From assembly GCA_944380095.1 (NCBI GenBank), contig CALWGP010000001.1, positions 2,524 through 66,523 of the forward strand: 64,000 nucleotides of DNA, in the 5' to 3' direction. A model generated the notes under the pieces. It saw only the letters and a list, made by a program, of their open reading frames with translations, was not told where the DNA came from and searched no databases. The translations under genes and the position numbers were made by a program. Shown in pieces: positions 15,297-37,266 of this stretch; the stretch's first letter is position 1, and the number at the start of each line of letters is the position of its first letter. Source of the stretch: an uncultured Lachnospiraceae bacterium (GTDB lineage Bacteria; Bacillota; Clostridia; Lachnospirales; Lachnospiraceae).

Positions 15297-15836
15297 CTAC
15301 TGGTGCCGCAGCACCCCGAATTTCCCAAGCGGCCAGATCCGTATCCAGGCTTTCCCGATAATGTCTCTGCGGTGGATGTTTCCCACGCTGGGGTCCCTGC
15401 TGTCCGAGCTGTTGTTCCGGTTGTCCCCCAGCACGAAATATTCGTCCTCCCCCAGGGTAATGGGTTCTGCCGCCCTTCCGGCGGCCACCATCACTTCCCT
15501 GCCGTAGCTTTCCTGCAGGACTTCCCCGTCGATATAGATCGTCCCCGCCTCGTCAATATACACCGTCTCCCCGGGCATCCCGATGATCCGCTTGATATAA
15601 TAGGTATCCTCTTCATACTGGAACGGGAATACAATAATATCAAACCGCTGCGGATCCGAAAAGCGGTAGGAAATTTTATCCACGATAAGATTGTCGTTAT
15701 GGCTCAAAGTAGGCTCCATGGAGCTGCCGTTTACCTGCGTGCGCTGTCCCACAAAAGTAATTACCAGCCAGGTTGCTGCCAGCACCACCAGGATATACAG
15801 CAGCGTGCTAAAAACTTCCTTCACGATATTTTTCAT
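15297..15836 (-). CDS. lepB: Signal peptidase I
   Basis: GSSMEPTL (Ser), YIKRIIG (Lys), GDNRNNSSDSR. Confidence 0.92.
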   Translation of the reverse strand: MKNIVKEVFSTLLYILVVLAATWLVITFVGQRTQVNGSSMEPTLSHNDNLIVDKISYRFSDPQRFDIIVFPFQYEEDTYYIKRIIGMPGETVYIDEAGTIYIDGEVLQESYGREVMVAAGRAAEPITLGEDEYFVLGDNRNNSSDSRDPSVGNIHRRDIIGKAWIRIWPLGKFGVLRHQ

Positions 15837-16690
15837 GCTTCTTCCTGTCCTTCCTGCGGCCATTCCAGTGAAATCCGTCCCAGGCGCCCGCTCCTGAAAT
15901 CATCCAAAAGCAGGCGGGCCGCTTTCCCGTAATCCGGCTCCTGCCCGCGCAGATAACAGTTTCTCGCCCGGCAGATTCGCTCCAGCATAACGGCGCCCTT
16001 TTCTTCTTCCGTCCCATACCGGGCCGCCAGCACGCCCGGATAAGATTCCGTAAGGAAATCAACCAGATCCAGGGCCAGTTCCTCCGGAATCAGGATCTCA
16101 TCGTTCATGGAGCCGATGAAAGCAAGCTTCATCCCCACCGCCGGATCCTCGAATTTCGGCCAGAGGATCCCGGGCGTATCCAAAAGCTCCAGCCCTTTTC
16201 CCAGGCGGATCCACTGCTTCCCCCTGGTCACCCCGGGCTTATTTCCCGTCTTCGTACAGGCCCTCTTGGCGTAAGAATTGATAAAGGTGGACTTTCCCAC
16301 GTTGGGAATCCCCGCCACCATGGCCCGCACCGGCCGGTTTAAGATCCCCCTGCGGCGATCCCTCTCCCGCTTTTCTTTGCACACCAGTTCCACTTTCTGC
16401 TGGATGGCTTTCAGTCCCACTCCCGCTTTGGCGTTAATTTCCAGTACTGCGATCCCCTGTTTTTCAAACCAGGCCGTCCACCGGGCATTTCCTTTCGGAT
16501 CCGCTAAATCCGCCTTATTCAGCAGCACCAGGCGGGCCTTGTTTTTTCCCATGGAATCGATATCGGGATTTCTGCTGGACAAAGGCATGCGGGCATCCAC
16601 CAGCTCGATGATCAGATCGACCAGGCCGATATCCTCCTGCATGGCCCTCACGGCCTTTGTCATATGTCCCGGATACCATTGATAATTCAT
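15833..16690 (-). CDS. rbgA: Ribosome biogenesis GTPase YlqF/RbgA
   Basis: QWYPGHM, DARMPLSSRNP, GIPNVGKS, LLDTPG. Confidence 0.95.
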   Translation of the reverse strand: MNYQWYPGHMTKAVRAMQEDIGLVDLIIELVDARMPLSSRNPDIDSMGKNKARLVLLNKADLADPKGNARWTAWFEKQGIAVLEINAKAGVGLKAIQQKVELVCKEKRERDRRRGILNRPVRAMVAGIPNVGKSTFINSYAKRACTKTGNKPGVTRGKQWIRLGKGLELLDTPGILWPKFEDPAVGMKLAFIGSMNDEILIPEELALDLVDFLTESYPGVLAARYGTEEEKGAVMLERICRARNCYLRGQEPDYGKAARLLLDDFRSGRLGRISLEWPQEGQEEA

Positions 16691-16699
16691 AACTCCTCC

Positions 16700-17284
16700 T
16701 TAACGGACCAGGCCCCATCCTTCCTGTCCGTTGCTGAAATGAAACCACGCCTTCCCGATAATGGTGCTTTTATGGACCGGCCCGATATTGGCGGAACGGC
16801 TGTCCTCGCTGTTGTTGCAGTTATCTCCCAGCACGAAATATTCATCTGTCCCAAGCCGGATTTCGTTTTCCGCGATTCCCGGGGCCGCAATCAGATCCAT
16901 GTCCTCGTCTCCGTAAGCCTTCCCGTCCACATACAATACCCCGTCCGAAATCAGGACGGTCTGTCCCGGAACGGCCACCACCCGCTTCACATAATAGTGG
17001 GCGTTCTCATTCCCGTTGGGCAGAAAAACGATCACGTCCCCTGCTTTCGGGGAAACGATCCGGTAGGAAATCCGGTTGACCAAAATCCCCTGCCCGTTGG
17101 TCAGTCCAGGCTCCATGGAAACGCCGATCACCGTAGTGCGCAGCCCTACGAAATAGGTGAACCAAAAAGCCAGAAACACTGCCAGGAAGATACCCGCGGT
17201 CCAGCTGAAAATCTCCCGCATCAAAGATGCGCTGATTTTTTTCTTCTTATGATAAAAATGAAGTCCCTTTTTGCTTCTTCTCAT
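16700..17284 (-). CDS. lepB: Signal peptidase I (second paralog)
   Basis: GVSMEPGL, YVKRVVA, GDNCNNSEDSR. Confidence 0.9.
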   Translation of the reverse strand: MRRSKKGLHFYHKKKKISASLMREIFSWTAGIFLAVFLAFWFTYFVGLRTTVIGVSMEPGLTNGQGILVNRISYRIVSPKAGDVIVFLPNGNENAHYYVKRVVAVPGQTVLISDGVLYVDGKAYGDEDMDLIAAPGIAENEIRLGTDEYFVLGDNCNNSEDSRSANIGPVHKSTIIGKAWFHFSNGQEGWGLVR

Positions 17285-17421: not shown

Positions 17422-17769
17422 TTATCTCAGGACTTCTTTTACCTTCGCGCTCTTGCCGATCCTGTCGCGCAGGTAATTGAGTTTTGCCCTTCTTACTTTA
17501 CCTTTTCTGACAACCTCAACTTTTTCCACGTTGGGAGAATGAAGCGGCCAGGTCTTCTCCACGCCTACGCCGTTGGAAGTCTTCCTGACGGTGAAGGTCT
17601 CGCGGTTGCTGCCGCCCTGCTTTTTGAGTACAACGCCTTCAAAAACCTGGATTCTCTCGCGGTTTCCTTCTTTGATCTTGCCGTACACTCTGACGGTATC
17701 GCCCGTCTCGAATGCGGGTACCTCTGCCTTTAACTGTGCAGCTTCAATTTCTCTGATGATTTCGTTCAT
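17422..17769 (-). CDS. rplS: 50S ribosomal protein L19
   Basis: [28 protein letters not shown]; SD AGGAGG. Confidence 0.97.
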
Positions 17770-17787: not shown

Positions 17788-17877
17788 CCGGATGTTCTTA
17801 ATACGGCTGGCGTAACAGAGGACCATCTCCTGTATTCGCAACATTAGTACTATAGCATAACGGTCTGCCGTTTGCAA
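17788..17877 (-). promoter_or_regulatory. rplS promoter and L19-leader-like structured 5' UTR
   Basis: TTGCAA-17-TATAGT (17849-17877); leader GATGGTCCTCTG...AAGAACATC can close a stem and resembles the Firmicutes L19 leader as recalled. Confidence 0.55.
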
Positions 17878-17885
17878 GTTCTTTT

Positions 17886-19286
17886 TCAGGAGATCCAGTA
17901 GATTTTTCCCGGGCAGACCCGGAAGCCCATCTTTTTCTGCAGCTGCAAGGACGCCAGATTATCCGTAAAAATATGGCCGTACGGGGTTTTCCCCTGTTCC
18001 AGCAGACGGTTGATCAAAAACCGTTCCAGCTGCTGGGCGATCCCCCTGTGACGAAATTTTTCCAGCACGTGCAAAATCCCCATGGAACCCTCTTCATGGG
18101 TCCCGATAAATCCGGCCAGTTCTTCCCCTTTTTCTCCCGGCAAAAACGCGCCGTAAAGGATTCCCTGTCCAAGAATCTCCCGCACCCGTTCCCGCTTTTC
18201 GATCAAAGGATACAGGGAATGGACAAGATCCGTATACTCTTCCCCGAGGGTACGGACCGCAATTCCTTCCGGCCCCGGCAAAGGGGATTTTTTCGTATAG
18301 ACCACCTGGAAGCATTCGCTTAGGAATGTTTTTTGGAATCTTCTTTCTATACTTTCCGCCAGAAACCTCTGGTGGCAGGTAAACACTTTTGCATCCGGAT
18401 CCGCCATGGAAAGCAGCCGTTCCCCGACGTCCGGGTTCTGCGCGGTCACCATATAGACGCCGCTGACCGTGTCTTTTAAGATCACGCCGTCCTCCCGCAC
18501 GGCCAGCACCTTCGCCTGGCCGTTTCGGATATCCTCGATCATATCCGCATGCAGAAGCCTATCCTTTTTCAAATATTCCAGCGCACGGCCCGGCAGGTCA
18601 TAGCCTGCATACAGATCCGGACGTCTCTGCTTCGTCCGCTCCACGGACCGTTCTTTCCTCCAGGCGTCCACCTTCGCATGGTCCCCGGACAAAAGCACCT
18701 CGGGCACGGGACGCCCGTTCCACACCTCCGGTCTGGTGTACTGGGGATATTCCAGAAGGTTTTCCTGAAAAGATTCCACCTCTCCCGACTCCTGGTTTTT
18801 CAGTACCCCGGGCACCATCCGGGCGATGGCATCAATCATCACCGCTGCCGGAAGTTCGCCCCCGGTGAGCACATAATCCCCGATGGAAACATAGTCCGTC
18901 ACGATTTCTTCCAGCACGCGCTCGTCCACGCCCTCATAATGGCCGCACAGAAAGCAGAGCTCTTCTTCCCCGGCAAATTCCCTTGCCATCTGCTGGTTAA
19001 AAACCTTCCCCTGGGGCGTAACGTAGATTACCCGCATGGGACATGCGCTCCCCGACTTTTGGCGCACCGCCTGCCATGCGTCAAAAACCGGCTGCGCCTG
19101 CATCAGCATACCGGCGCCGCCGCCATAAGGGTAGTCGTCCACTTTTTTGTGCTTATCCAGCGTATAATCCCGGATATTTACCGCATCCACTTCCAGAAGT
19201 CCCCTGTCGGCCGCCCGTCCCAGAATACTGGTATTCAGACAGCCCAGCACCATCTCCGGAAACAGGGTCAAAACATGAAAACGCAT
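17886..19286 (-). CDS. trmD: tRNA m1G37 methyltransferase TrmD fused in frame to a C-terminal GNAT acetyltransferase
   Basis: [41 protein letters not shown]; continues ~230 aa with no stop into a GNAT ([23 protein letters not shown]). Confidence 0.9.
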
Positions 19287-19330
19287 TCCGTCATTCCTCC
19301 GCTTATCCCTCTGTCCTTTTTCGTCCTGCC

Positions 19331-19837
19331 TCAAAGCAGGCCGTCGAGCACATGCACCCGCATAACGCCTGCCTGCACATCCACGGAAAGCACGCACTGC
19401 CGGATAGCCGGAAGCAGCAGTTCCCTTCCGTCCTCCATCCGGATCTGATAAACATCGTTGGCCCCCGTTTCGATTACGTCTTCCAGCCGTCCCAGGACCG
19501 CTCCCGATTCATCTTCCACCGAAATCCCGATCAGGTCCGCAATAAAATACTCGTTTTCTTTCAGCTTCACCGCGTTTTCACGGGTCACAAAAAGGTCGCA
19601 GCCCCTGTATTTTTCGATATCGTTTATAGAGTCAATCCCTTTGAATTTAAGAATTGCAAACTGTTTGAAAAATTTCACGTTTTCAATTTCAAGGACAAAG
19701 CTTTCCCGGCCGGCCTGAAGGATCACTTCCTTAAGCCGTTTAAACCGTCTCACATCGTCCGTAGTGGGGAAAACCTTCACTTCTCCCCGTACGCCGTGGG
19801 TGGAAGAGATGATTCCCACCTTCAGTCTGTCTTCCAT
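19331..19837 (-). CDS. rimM: Ribosome maturation factor RimM
   Basis: [25 protein letters not shown] barrel. Confidence 0.93.
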
Positions 19838-33529: not shown

Positions 33530-34732
33530 CTATTTTATGAGGGCATATGTCTGCCTTGCAATTGCCAGTTCCTCGTTTGTCGGAATCACCAGCACTTTCG
33601 TCGCAGACTCCGGGGTGGAAATCACCATGTCCTTCCCCCTCTTTGCATTCGCCTCTTCGTCCAGGGTAATTCCCAGATATCCCAGGTAATCCCCGCAGAT
33701 CATGGTGCGCATGATAGGGCTGTTTTCCCCTACCCCGGCCGTAAAGCAGACAGCGTCCACCCCGTTCATGGCCGCCGCATAGGCGCCCACATATTTGGCC
33801 GTCCGCAGGGCATACGCTTTCAGGGCGCGCGCCGCATTTGGATTTTTCTCCTTTTCCCAGGCATCTTCCAGATCCCTGAAGTCGGAAGAAAATCCGTCCG
33901 AAAGTCCAAGCACTCCCGATTCCTTATTCAGCATATTTGTAATTTCTTCAATGGATTTTCCTTCCTTATGGGCGATGAACTCAATCACCGCAGGATCCAC
34001 GTCCCCGCTCCTGGTGCCCATAATCAGGCCTTCAAGAGGGGTAAGTCCCATGGAAGTATCCACACATTTGCCATATTTTACGGCGGAAACGGACGCGCCG
34101 TTTCCCAGATGGCAGACAATGAGCTTCAGTTCTTCCACCGGTCTGCCCAGCACCGCAGCCGCCCGTTTGGAAACATAGTCGTGGCTGGTGCCGTGAAATC
34201 CGTATCTTCTGATCCGGTACTGTTCATAATACCGGTAGGGAATGCCGTACAGATAGGCTTCTTCCGGCATGGTCTGGTGAAAGGCCGTATCAAAGACCGC
34301 CACCATGGGGACCCCCGGCATCAGCGCTTTACAGGCCCTTATCCCGATGAGGTTGGCCGGATTGTGCAGGGGCGCCAGGTCGCTGCACGCGGCGATTTCA
34401 TTCTCCACTTCCGGCGTAATCAGCGTAGCGCCGGAAAATTTTTCCCCGCCGTGCACTATCCTGTGTCCCACTGCCCCGATCTGCGACAGATCCTTTACCA
34501 CCCCGGTTTCCGGATTGGTCAAAACGTCCAGCATGAGCCGGATCGCTTCCCTGTGATCCGCCATGGGCACCTGCTTTTTCTGCTTGGCGCCGCCGGCCGG
34601 CGTGAAGCTGATCTGGCTTGCGTCGATCCCGATTCTTTCACATAAACCTTTCGCAATCAGCTCCTCCGTATCCGCGTCGATCAGCTGGAATTTCAGAGAA
34701 GAGCTGCCGCTGTTGATAACCAGTATATTCAT
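33530..34732 (-). CDS. ackA: Acetate kinase
   Basis: LVINSGSSSLK, GHRIVHGG, FDTAFH, YGFHGTSH, PTNEEL. Confidence 0.97.
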   Translation of the reverse strand: MNILVINSGSSSLKFQLIDADTEELIAKGLCERIGIDASQISFTPAGGAKQKKQVPMADHREAIRLMLDVLTNPETGVVKDLSQIGAVGHRIVHGGEKFSGATLITPEVENEIAACSDLAPLHNPANLIGIRACKALMPGVPMVAVFDTAFHQTMPEEAYLYGIPYRYYEQYRIRRYGFHGTSHDYVSKRAAAVLGRPVEELKLIVCHLGNGASVSAVKYGKCVDTSMGLTPLEGLIMGTRSGDVDPAVIEFIAHKEGKSIEEITNMLNKESGVLGLSDGFSSDFRDLEDAWEKEKNPNAARALKAYALRTAKYVGAYAAAMNGVDAVCFTAGVGENSPIMRTMICGDYLGYLGITLDEEANAKRGKDMVISTPESATKVLVIPTNEELAIARQTYALIK

Positions 34733-34790: not shown

Positions 34791-35792
34791 TTACAGAAGC
34801 TGTGCCTGTACCGCTGTCAGCGCTACTACCCCGACGATATCCTCCCAGGAACATCCTCTGGAAAGATCGTTGACCGGCTTGGCGATCCCCTGCAGCATCG
34901 GTCCGTAGGCCTCTGCCTTCGCCAGCCTCTGCACCAGCTTATAGCCGATGTTGCCGCAGTCCAGGTTCGGGAAAATCAGGACGTTGGCCTTGCCCGCCAC
35001 TTCGCTGCCGGGCGCTTTGGATTTTGCCACCTGGGGGACCAAAGCCGCATCCGTCTGCAGCTCCCCGTCCAGCGTCAGGCCGGGATACTGCTCGTGGGCA
35101 ATCTCCACCGCACGCACCACCTTATCCACCAAGGGGTGCTTGGCGCTTCCTTTTGTGGAATGGGACAGCATGGCGATAATGGGCTTGGCGCCCACCAGGG
35201 TCTTAAAGCTCTTGGCGCTGGTATCGGCAATGGCTGCCAGCTCCTCCGAAGTGGGATCCTGGTTCAGGCCGCAGTCCGCAAACAGGAAGGTGCCGTTTTC
35301 CCCGTATTCGCAGTCGGGCACATCCAGGATAAAGAAGCCGGAAACCAGCTTCACGCCGGGCGCCGTCTTTAAAATCTGCAGTGCAGGCCGCAGGGTATCT
35401 GCGGTGGCGTGGCACGCCCCGGCCACCATACCGTCCGCGTCGTTGGCTTTTACCATGATCACGCCGAAGGTTAAGTTATCGCTCAACAGGATCTCCCTGG
35501 CCTTTTCCGGCGTCATCCCCTTATGTTTCCTTGTTTCGTATAAAAGCTGCACATACTCATCCAGCTTGTCGCAGGCACGGGGATCTACCACTTTGACGCC
35601 CGTCAGGTCAACTTCCAGCCATCCGGCGCCGTCCATGATCTTTTCCTCATTCCCCACCATGATGATATCCGCAATGCCTTCTTCCAGAATATGCGCCGCA
35701 GCAATCAACGTTCTCTTATCGTTGGTTTCCGGCAGAACGATCGTTTTTCTGTCTGCCCTCGCCTTTTCTTTGATGATGTCGATATAAGACAT
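34791..35792 (-). CDS. pta: Phosphate acetyltransferase
   Basis: IVLPE, DCGLN, SHSTKGSA, DGELQTDAA, GNIGYKL, NDLSRGCS. Confidence 0.96.
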   Translation of the reverse strand: MSYIDIIKEKARADRKTIVLPETNDKRTLIAAAHILEEGIADIIMVGNEEKIMDGAGWLEVDLTGVKVVDPRACDKLDEYVQLLYETRKHKGMTPEKAREILLSDNLTFGVIMVKANDADGMVAGACHATADTLRPALQILKTAPGVKLVSGFFILDVPDCEYGENGTFLFADCGLNQDPTSEELAAIADTSAKSFKTLVGAKPIIAMLSHSTKGSAKHPLVDKVVRAVEIAHEQYPGLTLDGELQTDAALVPQVAKSKAPGSEVAGKANVLIFPNLDCGNIGYKLVQRLAKAEAYGPMLQGIAKPVNDLSRGCSWEDIVGVVALTAVQAQLL

Positions 35793-35994: not shown

Positions 35995-37266
35995 ATGAAA
36001 ATCGCAGGCGTCATCGTAGAGTATAACCCGTTTCACAACGGCCATCAGTATCATCTTGCCCGCACCCGGGAAATCACGGGCGCGGATTTCGTGGTGGCCG
36101 TCATGAGCGGGGATTTCGTCCAGCGCGGGGAACCTGCCCTGCTGGACAAGTATACCCGGGCCAGGATGGCGCTTTTGGGCGGCGCGGACCTTGTGCTGGA
36201 ACTGCCGGTGCCTTTTGCCTGCGGCAGCGCGGGGGATTTTGCTTCCGGCGCAGTGGCCCTGTTAAACCGGCTGGGCACGGTGGACGCTTTGTGCTTTGGC
36301 AGCGAATGCGGGCGTATAGAACCGCTGTGGTCTTTGGCGGGCCTTCTGGAAAAGGAATCCCCTTCTTTTTCGGGGTCCCTTCGCCAGGGGCTTAAACAGG
36401 GGCTCCCCTATCCCCAGGCCCGGGCCCGGGCCCTTGGGGCGGCTTTTGAAGAACCGGCTCTGCCCCTTCTTTCCTCCCCAAACAATATCCTGGGGCTGGA
36501 ATACTGCCTGGCCCTGCGGCGGCAAAACAGCTCCATCCGCCCGGTCACCCTTTCCAGGCGCGGCAGCGGGTACCATGCCTCCGACCTGGCCCCCGGCAGG
36601 CAGGGACAGGATTTTCCCTCGGCCCTTGCCATCCGCCGGGCCTTACGTTCGATAAAAGACAAAGACCCGGCGCTGCCGGATCCCTGTTCTTTCCTCCCCT
36701 CCTGTGTTCCCAAGGCTGTCCGCCCCCTGTGGCAGACCCTTCTGGAAGAAAGGCGGTTTCTTTTTCCCGCCGACTTTACGCCCTTTTTAAAGTACCGGCT
36801 TCTCTACGGCGCTTCCGAGGATTTTTCCTCCTTTGCGGACGTCTCCCGGGAACTTGCCGGAAAACTGGCCAAAACCGGCACGGCCTTTTTGGACTGGGAC
36901 GACCTGTGTCTGCGCCTGAAAACAAAGGAACTTACCTTTTCGCGGATCAGCCGCGCCCTCTGCCACATCCTCCTGTCCATCCGTCAGGAAGATGTGCAGA
37001 GGCTGCGCGCGACAGGCTATGTGCCCTACGCGCGTATCCTCGGACTGCGCCGAAGCAGTAGCGCACTTTTGTCCTCCATCAAAAAAAACAGCAGCATCCC
37101 CCTGATCTCCAAGCTGGCGGACGCACGCGCCCTGCTTTCTTCCGAAGATTTTTTGCTTCTGCAGACGGATATACGGGCGGCGGATCTTTACGAAAACGCC
37201 CTTGCCCTTCGCACCCGTACCGTCCCCGTAAACGAATACCAAAAGCAGTTCCCCATCCTGCCCTGA
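35995..37266 (+). CDS. tmcAL: tRNA(Met) cytidine acetate ligase (YlbM family)
   Basis: EYNPFHNGH HIGH-type motif, MSGDFVQRGEP, FGSE, PNNILG; divergent from pta. Confidence 0.85.
   Translation: MKIAGVIVEYNPFHNGHQYHLARTREITGADFVVAVMSGDFVQRGEPALLDKYTRARMALLGGADLVLELPVPFACGSAGDFASGAVALLNRLGTVDALCFGSECGRIEPLWSLAGLLEKESPSFSGSLRQGLKQGLPYPQARARALGAAFEEPALPLLSSPNNILGLEYCLALRRQNSSIRPVTLSRRGSGYHASDLAPGRQGQDFPSALAIRRALRSIKDKDPALPDPCSFLPSCVPKAVRPLWQTLLEERRFLFPADFTPFLKYRLLYGASEDFSSFADVSRELAGKLAKTGTAFLDWDDLCLRLKTKELTFSRISRALCHILLSIRQEDVQRLRATGYVPYARILGLRRSSSALLSSIKKNSSIPLISKLADARALLSSEDFLLLQTDIRAADLYENALALRTRTVPVNEYQKQFPILP

Follow-up and report, generated by a model that had tools for sequence, protein, structure and literature searches.

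Analysis of a 64,000-nucleotide stretch of DNA from an uncultured Lachnospiraceae bacterium (GenBank assembly GCA_944380095.1, contig CALWGP010000001.1, positions 2,524 to 66,523 of the forward strand; hereafter referred to as the window) revealed that its trmD gene, which codes for tRNA (guanine37-N1)-methyltransferase, is fused in frame to a gene coding for a two-lobed GNAT acyltransferase. TrmD is an essential enzyme and an antibiotic target that makes N1-methylguanosine at position 37 (m1G37) on tRNAs with G36-G37, and it is normally stand-alone. The fusion is real, old and under purifying selection. We favor, with a probability of about 0.6, the view that a cargo gene was captured in an operon slot prone to fusions, so that one polypeptide would carry two independent enzymes, because sister genera fuse TrmD to unrelated modules and an efflux gene is found in the same slot in one of the genomes studied.

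A single reading frame encodes TrmD and a two-lobed acyltransferase

The fusion gene is one stop-free open reading frame (ORF) of 466 codons plus stop, as seen in the ORF list and the translation. It starts with an ATG at 19286-19284 of the minus strand. The plus-strand reading of the same interval was rejected, its translation being full of stops. The gene and the parts of its product are the following.

17886..19286, minus strand: trmD::GNAT fusion gene (ORF list, translation, Pfam, NCBIfam)
18600..19286, minus strand: TrmD domain (SPOUT m1G37 methyltransferase), residues 1-229 (NCBIfam, alignment with S. aureus 3KY7)
18591..18608, minus strand: junction AGYDLP, residues 227-232 (alignments with unfused TrmDs and stand-alone acyltransferases)
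18252..18590, minus strand: acyltransferase N-lobe, GNAT-like, lacking the coenzyme A (CoA) motif, residues 233-345 (confident model; fold matches 7PK1 and 1SQH; ratio of non-synonymous to synonymous substitution rates, dN/dS, 0.06-0.14)
17889..18251, minus strand: C-lobe, CoA-binding GNAT/FR47, residues 346-466 (PF08445, PF00583, model; dN/dS 0.12-0.22)
18294..18314, minus strand: motif C325-x-Q327-x-x-Y330-T331 in an N-lobe strand (invariant in 23 of 23 fused C-terminal halves; Y330 and T331 vary in stand-alone relatives)
18087..18098, minus strand: H397-E-E-G400 hairpin (column counts)
18036..18053, minus strand: R412-H-R-G415-I-A417, the GNAT Q/R-x-x-G-x-G/A pyrophosphate-binding motif (column counts, model)

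The N-terminal half is a TrmD. Pfam tRNA_m1G_MT (PF01746) matches residues 23-223 with an E-value of 1.5e-61, the NCBIfam equivalog NF000648 spans residues 1-226 with 323.6 bits (cut-off 220), and TIGR00088 gives 308.5 bits (cut-off 195). The fused trmD is the sole PF01746 match in the genome, which is 97.6% complete and assembled in 208 contigs. Family membership and sole-copy status suggest that this half has m1G37 activity. The general base of TrmD is Asp169 in E. coli numbering, and Arg154 and the GxYxG and GGE-knot motifs are further landmarks of the enzyme. In the alignment of the window protein, Arg156 and two knot motifs, CGHYEG and another of 12 residues, are invariant. Where E. coli and S. 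aureus TrmD have the catalytic Asp, the window protein has Glu171. Glutamate, in the context ESF or ESL, was found at the general-base position in all 21 unfused TrmDs of the family that were checked and in 16 of 17 fused ones. Since unfused TrmDs of the family have Glu too, Glu171 is, as far as these sequences tell, a lineage trait unlinked to the fusion, and a TrmD that carries it is probably functional.

According to the alignments, about six linker residues join the natural end of TrmD (RPDLY) to the helix that opens stand-alone acyltransferases, and in the full-length model the helices run through the junction without a break. An internal start for a separate acyltransferase was considered and, by eye only, rejected: the first methionine past the junction, M249, lies inside helix 2 of the N-lobe, and no good, properly spaced Shine-Dalgarno sequence was seen for it.

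The whole of residues 233-466 (234 residues) forms a complete two-lobed acyltransferase in an AlphaFold2 model of the C-terminal half that was built from 35 sequences and has two alpha/beta lobes (predicted local distance difference test 96.8, predicted template modelling score, pTM, 0.91). Pfam places FR47 (PF08445) at residues 387-464 with 42.9 bits (cut-off 22.1) and Acetyltransf_1 (PF00583) at residues 379-455 with 29.3 bits (cut-off 20.7). A Foldseek search with the model gave 121 matches in the Protein Data Bank (PDB) at E ≤ 0.001, and the best 50 are all chains of GNAT fold, mostly two-lobed or tandem. The top match is bovine glycine N-acyltransferase (GLYAT) 7PK1 (TMq 0.72, E 2e-12), followed by Drosophila CG14615/FR47 1SQH (TMq 0.68), other tandem GNATs and the uncharacterised 3EC4. 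A sequence search of the PDB likewise ranks 3EC4 and 1SQH near the top.

The initial annotation, which left the strand unstated, had a complete TrmD continuing without a stop into about 230 residues that end in a GNAT fold with an acetyl-CoA-binding motif, FRHRGIA. The in-frame continuation is borne out by the ORF, Pfam and NCBIfam, and the motif was located at residues 411-417 (window 18036-18056). The GNAT with its CoA motif is thus present as described; the words "ending in" need correction, the two-lobed acyltransferase filling the extension from residue 233 to residue 466.

Column counts in the fused sequences show the Arg of the CoA motif in 23 of 23 and its Gly in 20 of 23. In the model the motif sits between strand 171-176 and helix 185-199, counted from residue 232. 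The hairpin is conserved across the 35 sequences as well (His in 33, Glu399 or Asp in 34, Gly400 in all 35), and we propose H397-E-E-G400 as a candidate catalytic acid/base site. The C-terminal half is predicted to be an acyl-CoA N-acyltransferase and is apparently active. The loop that enters the CoA lobe, between G375-F381 and L388 (window ~18120-18165), carries an insert of low complexity and hypervariable sequence in which Ala, Glu, Gly and Thr are abundant; some relatives (P0033, P0014, P0011) have up to ~60 residues there, the window protein only LPGEKGEE.

The Gly_acyl_tr_C model (PF08444) scores 12.3 bits against a cut-off of 27 and PF06021 does not match, which places the C-terminal half outside the GLYAT sequence family. 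Because the fold is alike but the GLYAT sequence models stay below cut-off, the protein appears GLYAT-like in fold only. It is a GNAT by membership and belongs to none of the characterised subfamilies.

The fusion is widespread and maintained by selection

The identical 466-residue protein is on record with 44 member sequences, and 40 fused clusters of 460-527 residues match the C-terminal half at identities down to 45%. Two relatives from other samples (L026, L027) are 82-83% identical over the whole protein and 74-76% in the C-terminal half, with the same single ORF and the same synteny. Among the other species of the genus, 18 of 19 give a match, and in at least 17 of the 19 a single open frame covers both halves, at 60-83% identity. 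One species appears truncated in the C-terminal half (G700), and one, whose genome is 93% complete, gives no match. In a survey of the family with one genome per genus, the full fusion was found in 9 of 300 other Lachnospiraceae genera.

Proteins of more than 406 residues that carry a TrmD form at least 6665 clusters. The best 120 of them, ranked by likeness to the TrmD of the window (a ranking that says nothing on GNAT enrichment among independent fusions), are almost all TrmD joined to FR47/GNAT and include metagenome-assembled genomes (MAGs) labelled Eisenbergiella, Roseburia and Lachnospiraceae. The fused clusters in this list number more than 100, and some have over a thousand (>1000) member sequences. 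At the level of the class, a PF01746 survey of ~400 genomes gave three long open frames (378, 393 and 333 residues) among the best 150 matches.

Selection was estimated by the Nei-Gojobori method against the two close relatives, at dS values of 0.8-1.4 that are near saturation and make the ratios rough. The dN/dS values are 0.04-0.08 for the TrmD half and 0.11-0.17 for the acyltransferase half, with both lobes constrained. Relaxed selection on the GNAT half had been named beforehand as a reason to abandon the fusion, as had two separate ORFs in relatives combined with an error at the junction. Both were looked at; the ratios speak for constraint, and the relatives have one ORF.

The genome is a 208-contig assembly, and a sequencing or assembly error, or a recent stop loss private to this MAG, could in principle have joined two genes. 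Such an accident is excluded for practical purposes, because independent assemblies, the genus, other genera and cluster records, some of them very large, carry the same ORF. The initial annotation had also offered a fusion by stop loss. This holds for an ancient event that became fixed in a clade, but not for a private accident of the assembly.

In a sizeable group of common gut Lachnospiraceae (the genus, at least nine others and Roseburia-labelled MAGs), TrmD is made only joined to an acyltransferase that is apparently active. The label of the fusion in databases is simply "TrmD", and annotation pipelines overlook a whole enzyme. We found no paper describing the TrmD-acyltransferase architecture or the function of the bacterial acyltransferase family. 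Two records of the JGI (P0044, P0046) are stand-alone acyltransferases of 232-234 residues named "tRNA (guanine37-N1)-methyltransferase", a name that was probably carried over from fused proteins.

The acyltransferase half descends from a stand-alone family

When 1.84 billion representatives were searched with a profile of the C-terminal half, 836 clusters matched at E ≤ 1e-30. The best 150 consist almost entirely of stand-alone proteins 225-250 residues long, and the Atlas names such relatives GNAT/FR47 proteins of Bacillota. No paralogue of the C-terminal half was found in the same, 97.6%-complete genome. By sequence likeness, the stand-alone family of ~235 residues is the direct parent of the C-terminal half. 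Five stand-alone relatives were located on contigs, where their surroundings are unrelated and their neighbours are lepA, fur-znuABC, a glycosyltransferase gene, an overlapping class I/II aminotransferase gene and mreB. A split form, with trmD beside a separate acyltransferase gene, was not found at these five loci, which amount to a handful of contigs only.

The overlapping gene belongs to the closest stand-alone relative, P0043 (39% identity; L048:882-1613:+), which overlaps the end of the class I/II aminotransferase gene (L048:2-892:+) by 11 nt. Because of this overlap, there is a hint of a role of the acyltransferase family in amino-acid or amine metabolism.

A tree was made from 27 fused and 43 stand-alone sequences of the C-terminal half. 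The fused/stand-alone label changes 3 times on the free tree, compared to 21.6 times with shuffled labels. Holding all 27 fused sequences as one clade gives a tree that improves on the free search by 5.5 log-likelihood units (p-AU 0.59). The result fits one fusion event, as far as a tree of these sequences can indicate.

Recurrent fusion of modules to the 3' end of trmD

Other Lachnospiraceae genera have in-frame fusions of TrmD to modules other than GNAT, and two of their TrmDs have tails with no Pfam match. These loci, identified with Pfam, and the locus of a further, unfused gene are listed below.

L003:1488-2987, plus strand: TrmD fused to a PHP phosphoesterase
L006:1570-3096, plus strand: TrmD fused to an ABC-type ATPase
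L007:839-2218, minus strand: TrmD fused to a HAD hydrolase
L004:766-2196, minus strand: TrmD ending in a ferredoxin module with two 4Fe-4S motifs
L008:761-2209, minus strand: TrmD ending in a ferredoxin module with two 4Fe-4S motifs
L009:2178-2741, plus strand: TrmD tail with no Pfam match
L010:2170-2556, plus strand: TrmD tail with no Pfam match
L005:588-1940, minus strand: MatE efflux gene, 450 aa, unfused, between trmD and rplS in genome G087; begins 18 nt after trmD

In most loci where rplS was found within the fetched stretch, it follows the fused ORF directly. In the TrmD tree, L010 is placed together with the ferredoxin fusions; for this reason, its tail may be a truncated remnant of a ferredoxin fusion. 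A related fusion protein, P0235 (433 residues; tail 228-433), keeps the two-lobed fold (hhalign 98%) and has lost both R-x-x-G-x-A and HEEG. From the unrelated fusions, the unfused MatE gene in the slot and the motif-less P0235 we conclude that the 3' end of trmD in Lachnospiraceae is a recurrent site of in-frame capture, and that captured modules can later erode. Judged from the best 120 long TrmD clusters, ranked as above, no partner seems as widespread as the GLYAT-like one. The site could serve as a natural model for studying why fusions are tolerated, or attracted, by certain essential genes.

Erosion of this kind raises the question of whether catalysis by the C-terminal half of the window protein is dispensable and this half is chiefly an appendage, structural or acyl-CoA-sensing, through which the stability, dimer behaviour or localisation of TrmD is tuned. 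At least one related fusion, P0235 with its retained fold and lost motifs, agrees with this, as do the apparent truncation in G700 and the unrecognisable remnants of L009 and L010. The window protein, however, has kept both its CoA motif and its putative catalytic hairpin, as have 20-23 of 23 fused relatives, and both lobes evolve at dN/dS values (0.06-0.22) like those of an active enzyme. We regard a purely accessory role as quite unlikely.

Relation between the two activities

The initial annotation had proposed a bifunctional enzyme that couples m1G37 to an acetylation. In its general form, functional coupling would mean that the acyltransferase acts on a target delivered by TrmD and so links m1G37 and acylation. 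Candidate targets are nucleosides of tRNA, the amino acid charged on Pro-, Leu- or Arg-tRNA, ribosomal proteins encoded in the operon, and TrmD as its own substrate. The long maintenance of the fusion under purifying selection agrees with such a link, and so do three features described below, namely the very short linker, the pocket residues fixed in the fused clade and the slightly lower acidity of fused C-terminal halves. On the other hand, no TmcA/Kre33-type domain (GNAT_acetyltr_2, helicase-type ATPase, TmcA_N) was found by Pfam in the fusion protein at E ≤ 1, so that the parts of known RNA acetyltransferases are missing from the C-terminal half, and the RimI equivalog TIGR01575 scores 16.6 bits where its cut-off is 86.4, which leaves the protein outside RimI. 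The parent family is stand-alone and none of its five located members adjoins trmD; TrmDs of sister genera are joined to chemically unrelated modules; and some lineages, such as that of P0235, keep the fold without the two motifs.

Structure prediction had been suggested as a check for an interface between the domains. In the full-length monomer model both domains are confident, but a pTM of 0.56 leaves their relative placement without confidence, and no confident interdomain packing is seen. Prediction of a complex of two TrmD domains with the C-terminal half (score 0.00, mark 0.32) speaks neither for nor against binding.

The neighbourhood argument brought forward for coupling, namely the presence of tmcAL, pta and ackA at the locus, is weak. 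The genes tmcAL (35995-37200, plus strand) and, divergent from it, pta (34812-35783, minus strand) and ackA (33554-34726, minus strand) lie 14-17 kb from the fusion gene, past ffh, ftsY and smc. Elsewhere in the genome, contig C148 carries another ackA, and contig C5 a pta-like pair.

Several observations weigh against cargo capture with two independent activities. The linker of about six residues is tighter than a passive fusion needs. Y330, T331, N426 and Q450, four residues of the pocket, are fixed in the fused clade and variable in stand-alone relatives; because they are fixed only there, the fused clade may have an acceptor of its own, which could be translation-related. The median isoelectric point is 6.2 for fused C-terminal halves versus 5.5 for stand-alone proteins, and 8.1 in the window protein, so that fused sequences are somewhat less acidic. 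The single origin of the fusion comes from the tree of C-terminal halves, because the tree of TrmD halves (40 sequences) has a backbone lacking resolution, with 22 of 37 branches open. Finally, a small-molecule amine as acceptor is a guess drawn from the fold family and from the one stand-alone relative that overlaps an aminotransferase gene.

Taking both sides together, we consider functional coupling unlikely, and acetylation coupled to m1G37 in particular is unsupported. More specific versions, in which the fused acyltransferase would use the TrmD dimer as a tRNA-docking platform to acylate a nucleoside or the aminoacyl moiety of G36-G37 tRNAs (Pro, Leu, Arg), or in which TrmD would answer to the acyl-CoA pool, seem improbable. 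An acyltransferase that acts on tRNA or responds to acyl-CoA would link central metabolism to frameshift control and reading-frame maintenance in abundant gut Lachnospiraceae; the evidence makes this unlikely.

Capture of a cargo gene with independent activities accounts for the fusion as follows. Residues 1-229 would be the housekeeping TrmD of the cell, making m1G37 on G36-G37 tRNAs. The C-lobe would bind acyl-CoA through R412-x-x-G415-x-A417, and an amine acceptor would be taken up in the interlobe cleft, which has C325/Q327/Y330/T331 and H397/E399 in its walls. Our best guess for the acceptor is a small molecule, i.e. an amino acid or another metabolite amine, and not tRNA. In a single event according to the tree, the stop between trmD and a stand-alone acyltransferase gene in the trmD-rplS slot may have been lost, after which the fusion would have passed by descent through the genus and several further genera of the Lachnospiraceae. 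What the fusion would most probably bring is a free ride, that is, steady, low, growth-linked expression from a ribosomal operon, and the TrmD dimer would make the acyltransferase two-per-complex. We do not think that the gain is a chemical coupling to m1G37.

Operon context

The fused trmD occupies the usual TrmD slot in the rpsP-(khpA)-rimM-trmD-rplS operon. The order of the gene block in the window, ffh-rpsP-khpA-rimM-trmD-rplS-lepB-rbgA-lepB-rnhB, is called standard. The features next to the fusion gene are listed below.

19331..19837, minus strand: rimM, directly upstream of the fusion gene (PF01782 and PF24986)
19296..19300, minus strand: ribosome-binding site GGAGG, 9 nt before the ATG at 19286 (read from the sequence)
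17849..17877, minus strand: TTGCAA-17-TATAGT, promoter-like and with a TG extension, within the 116 nt that separate the fusion gene from rplS (consensus scan)
17422..17769, minus strand: rplS (L19), directly downstream of the fusion gene (PF01245; 115 aa from ATG 17769, as the 115-aa L19 of relatives L026 and L027)

The stop of rimM is at 19333-19331, and the ATG of the fusion gene follows 45 nt after it. A mechanical ORF for L19 (17422-17877, minus strand) would give 151 residues from a TTG; the relatives and the Pfam match favor the 115-residue form that starts with ATG 17769. The promoter-like site begins 9 nt past the stop of the fusion gene and ends ~80 nt before the ATG of rplS. It is weak, and the one site found equals the number expected by chance in the consensus scan; rplS may have its own promoter there. 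No L19 leader was recognised by Rfam in the trmD-rplS spacer at E ≤ 0.1, nor any other match. Downstream of rplS, two paralogues of signal peptidase I (S26), at 15297-15863 and 16700-17284 of the minus strand, flank a gene for an rbgA/ylqF-type GTPase.

Comparison with known systems

Canonical bacterial TrmD (S. aureus 3KY7) can be aligned with residues 1-229 end to end (E 1.7e-76). The window protein has in common with canonical TrmD (3KY7 and H. influenzae 4YVI/1UAK, for example) the SPOUT S-adenosylmethionine-binding motifs and the rimM-trmD-rplS position, whereas canonical enzymes lack its 237 extra C-terminal residues. GLYAT (bovine 7PK0/7PK1) and Drosophila CG14615/FR47 (1SQH) have the same two-lobed layout as the C-terminal half, a GNAT-like N-lobe and a CoA-binding C-lobe, with E about 1e-12; their chains are, however, only 12-16% identical to the C-terminal half, which is bacterial and ~55-65 residues shorter. 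Closer to it are stand-alone bacterial FR47-type GNATs of ~235 residues (P0043-P0201; 3EC4 of Novosphingobium), which are 30-39% identical across both lobes and share the CoA motif and HEEG. They differ in being unfused and in the four positions that are fixed only in the TrmD-fused clade. The PHP, HAD, ABC and ferredoxin fusions of TrmD are attached at the same point as the GNAT fusion, where TrmD naturally ends and in the slot that precedes rplS, but their partner differs.

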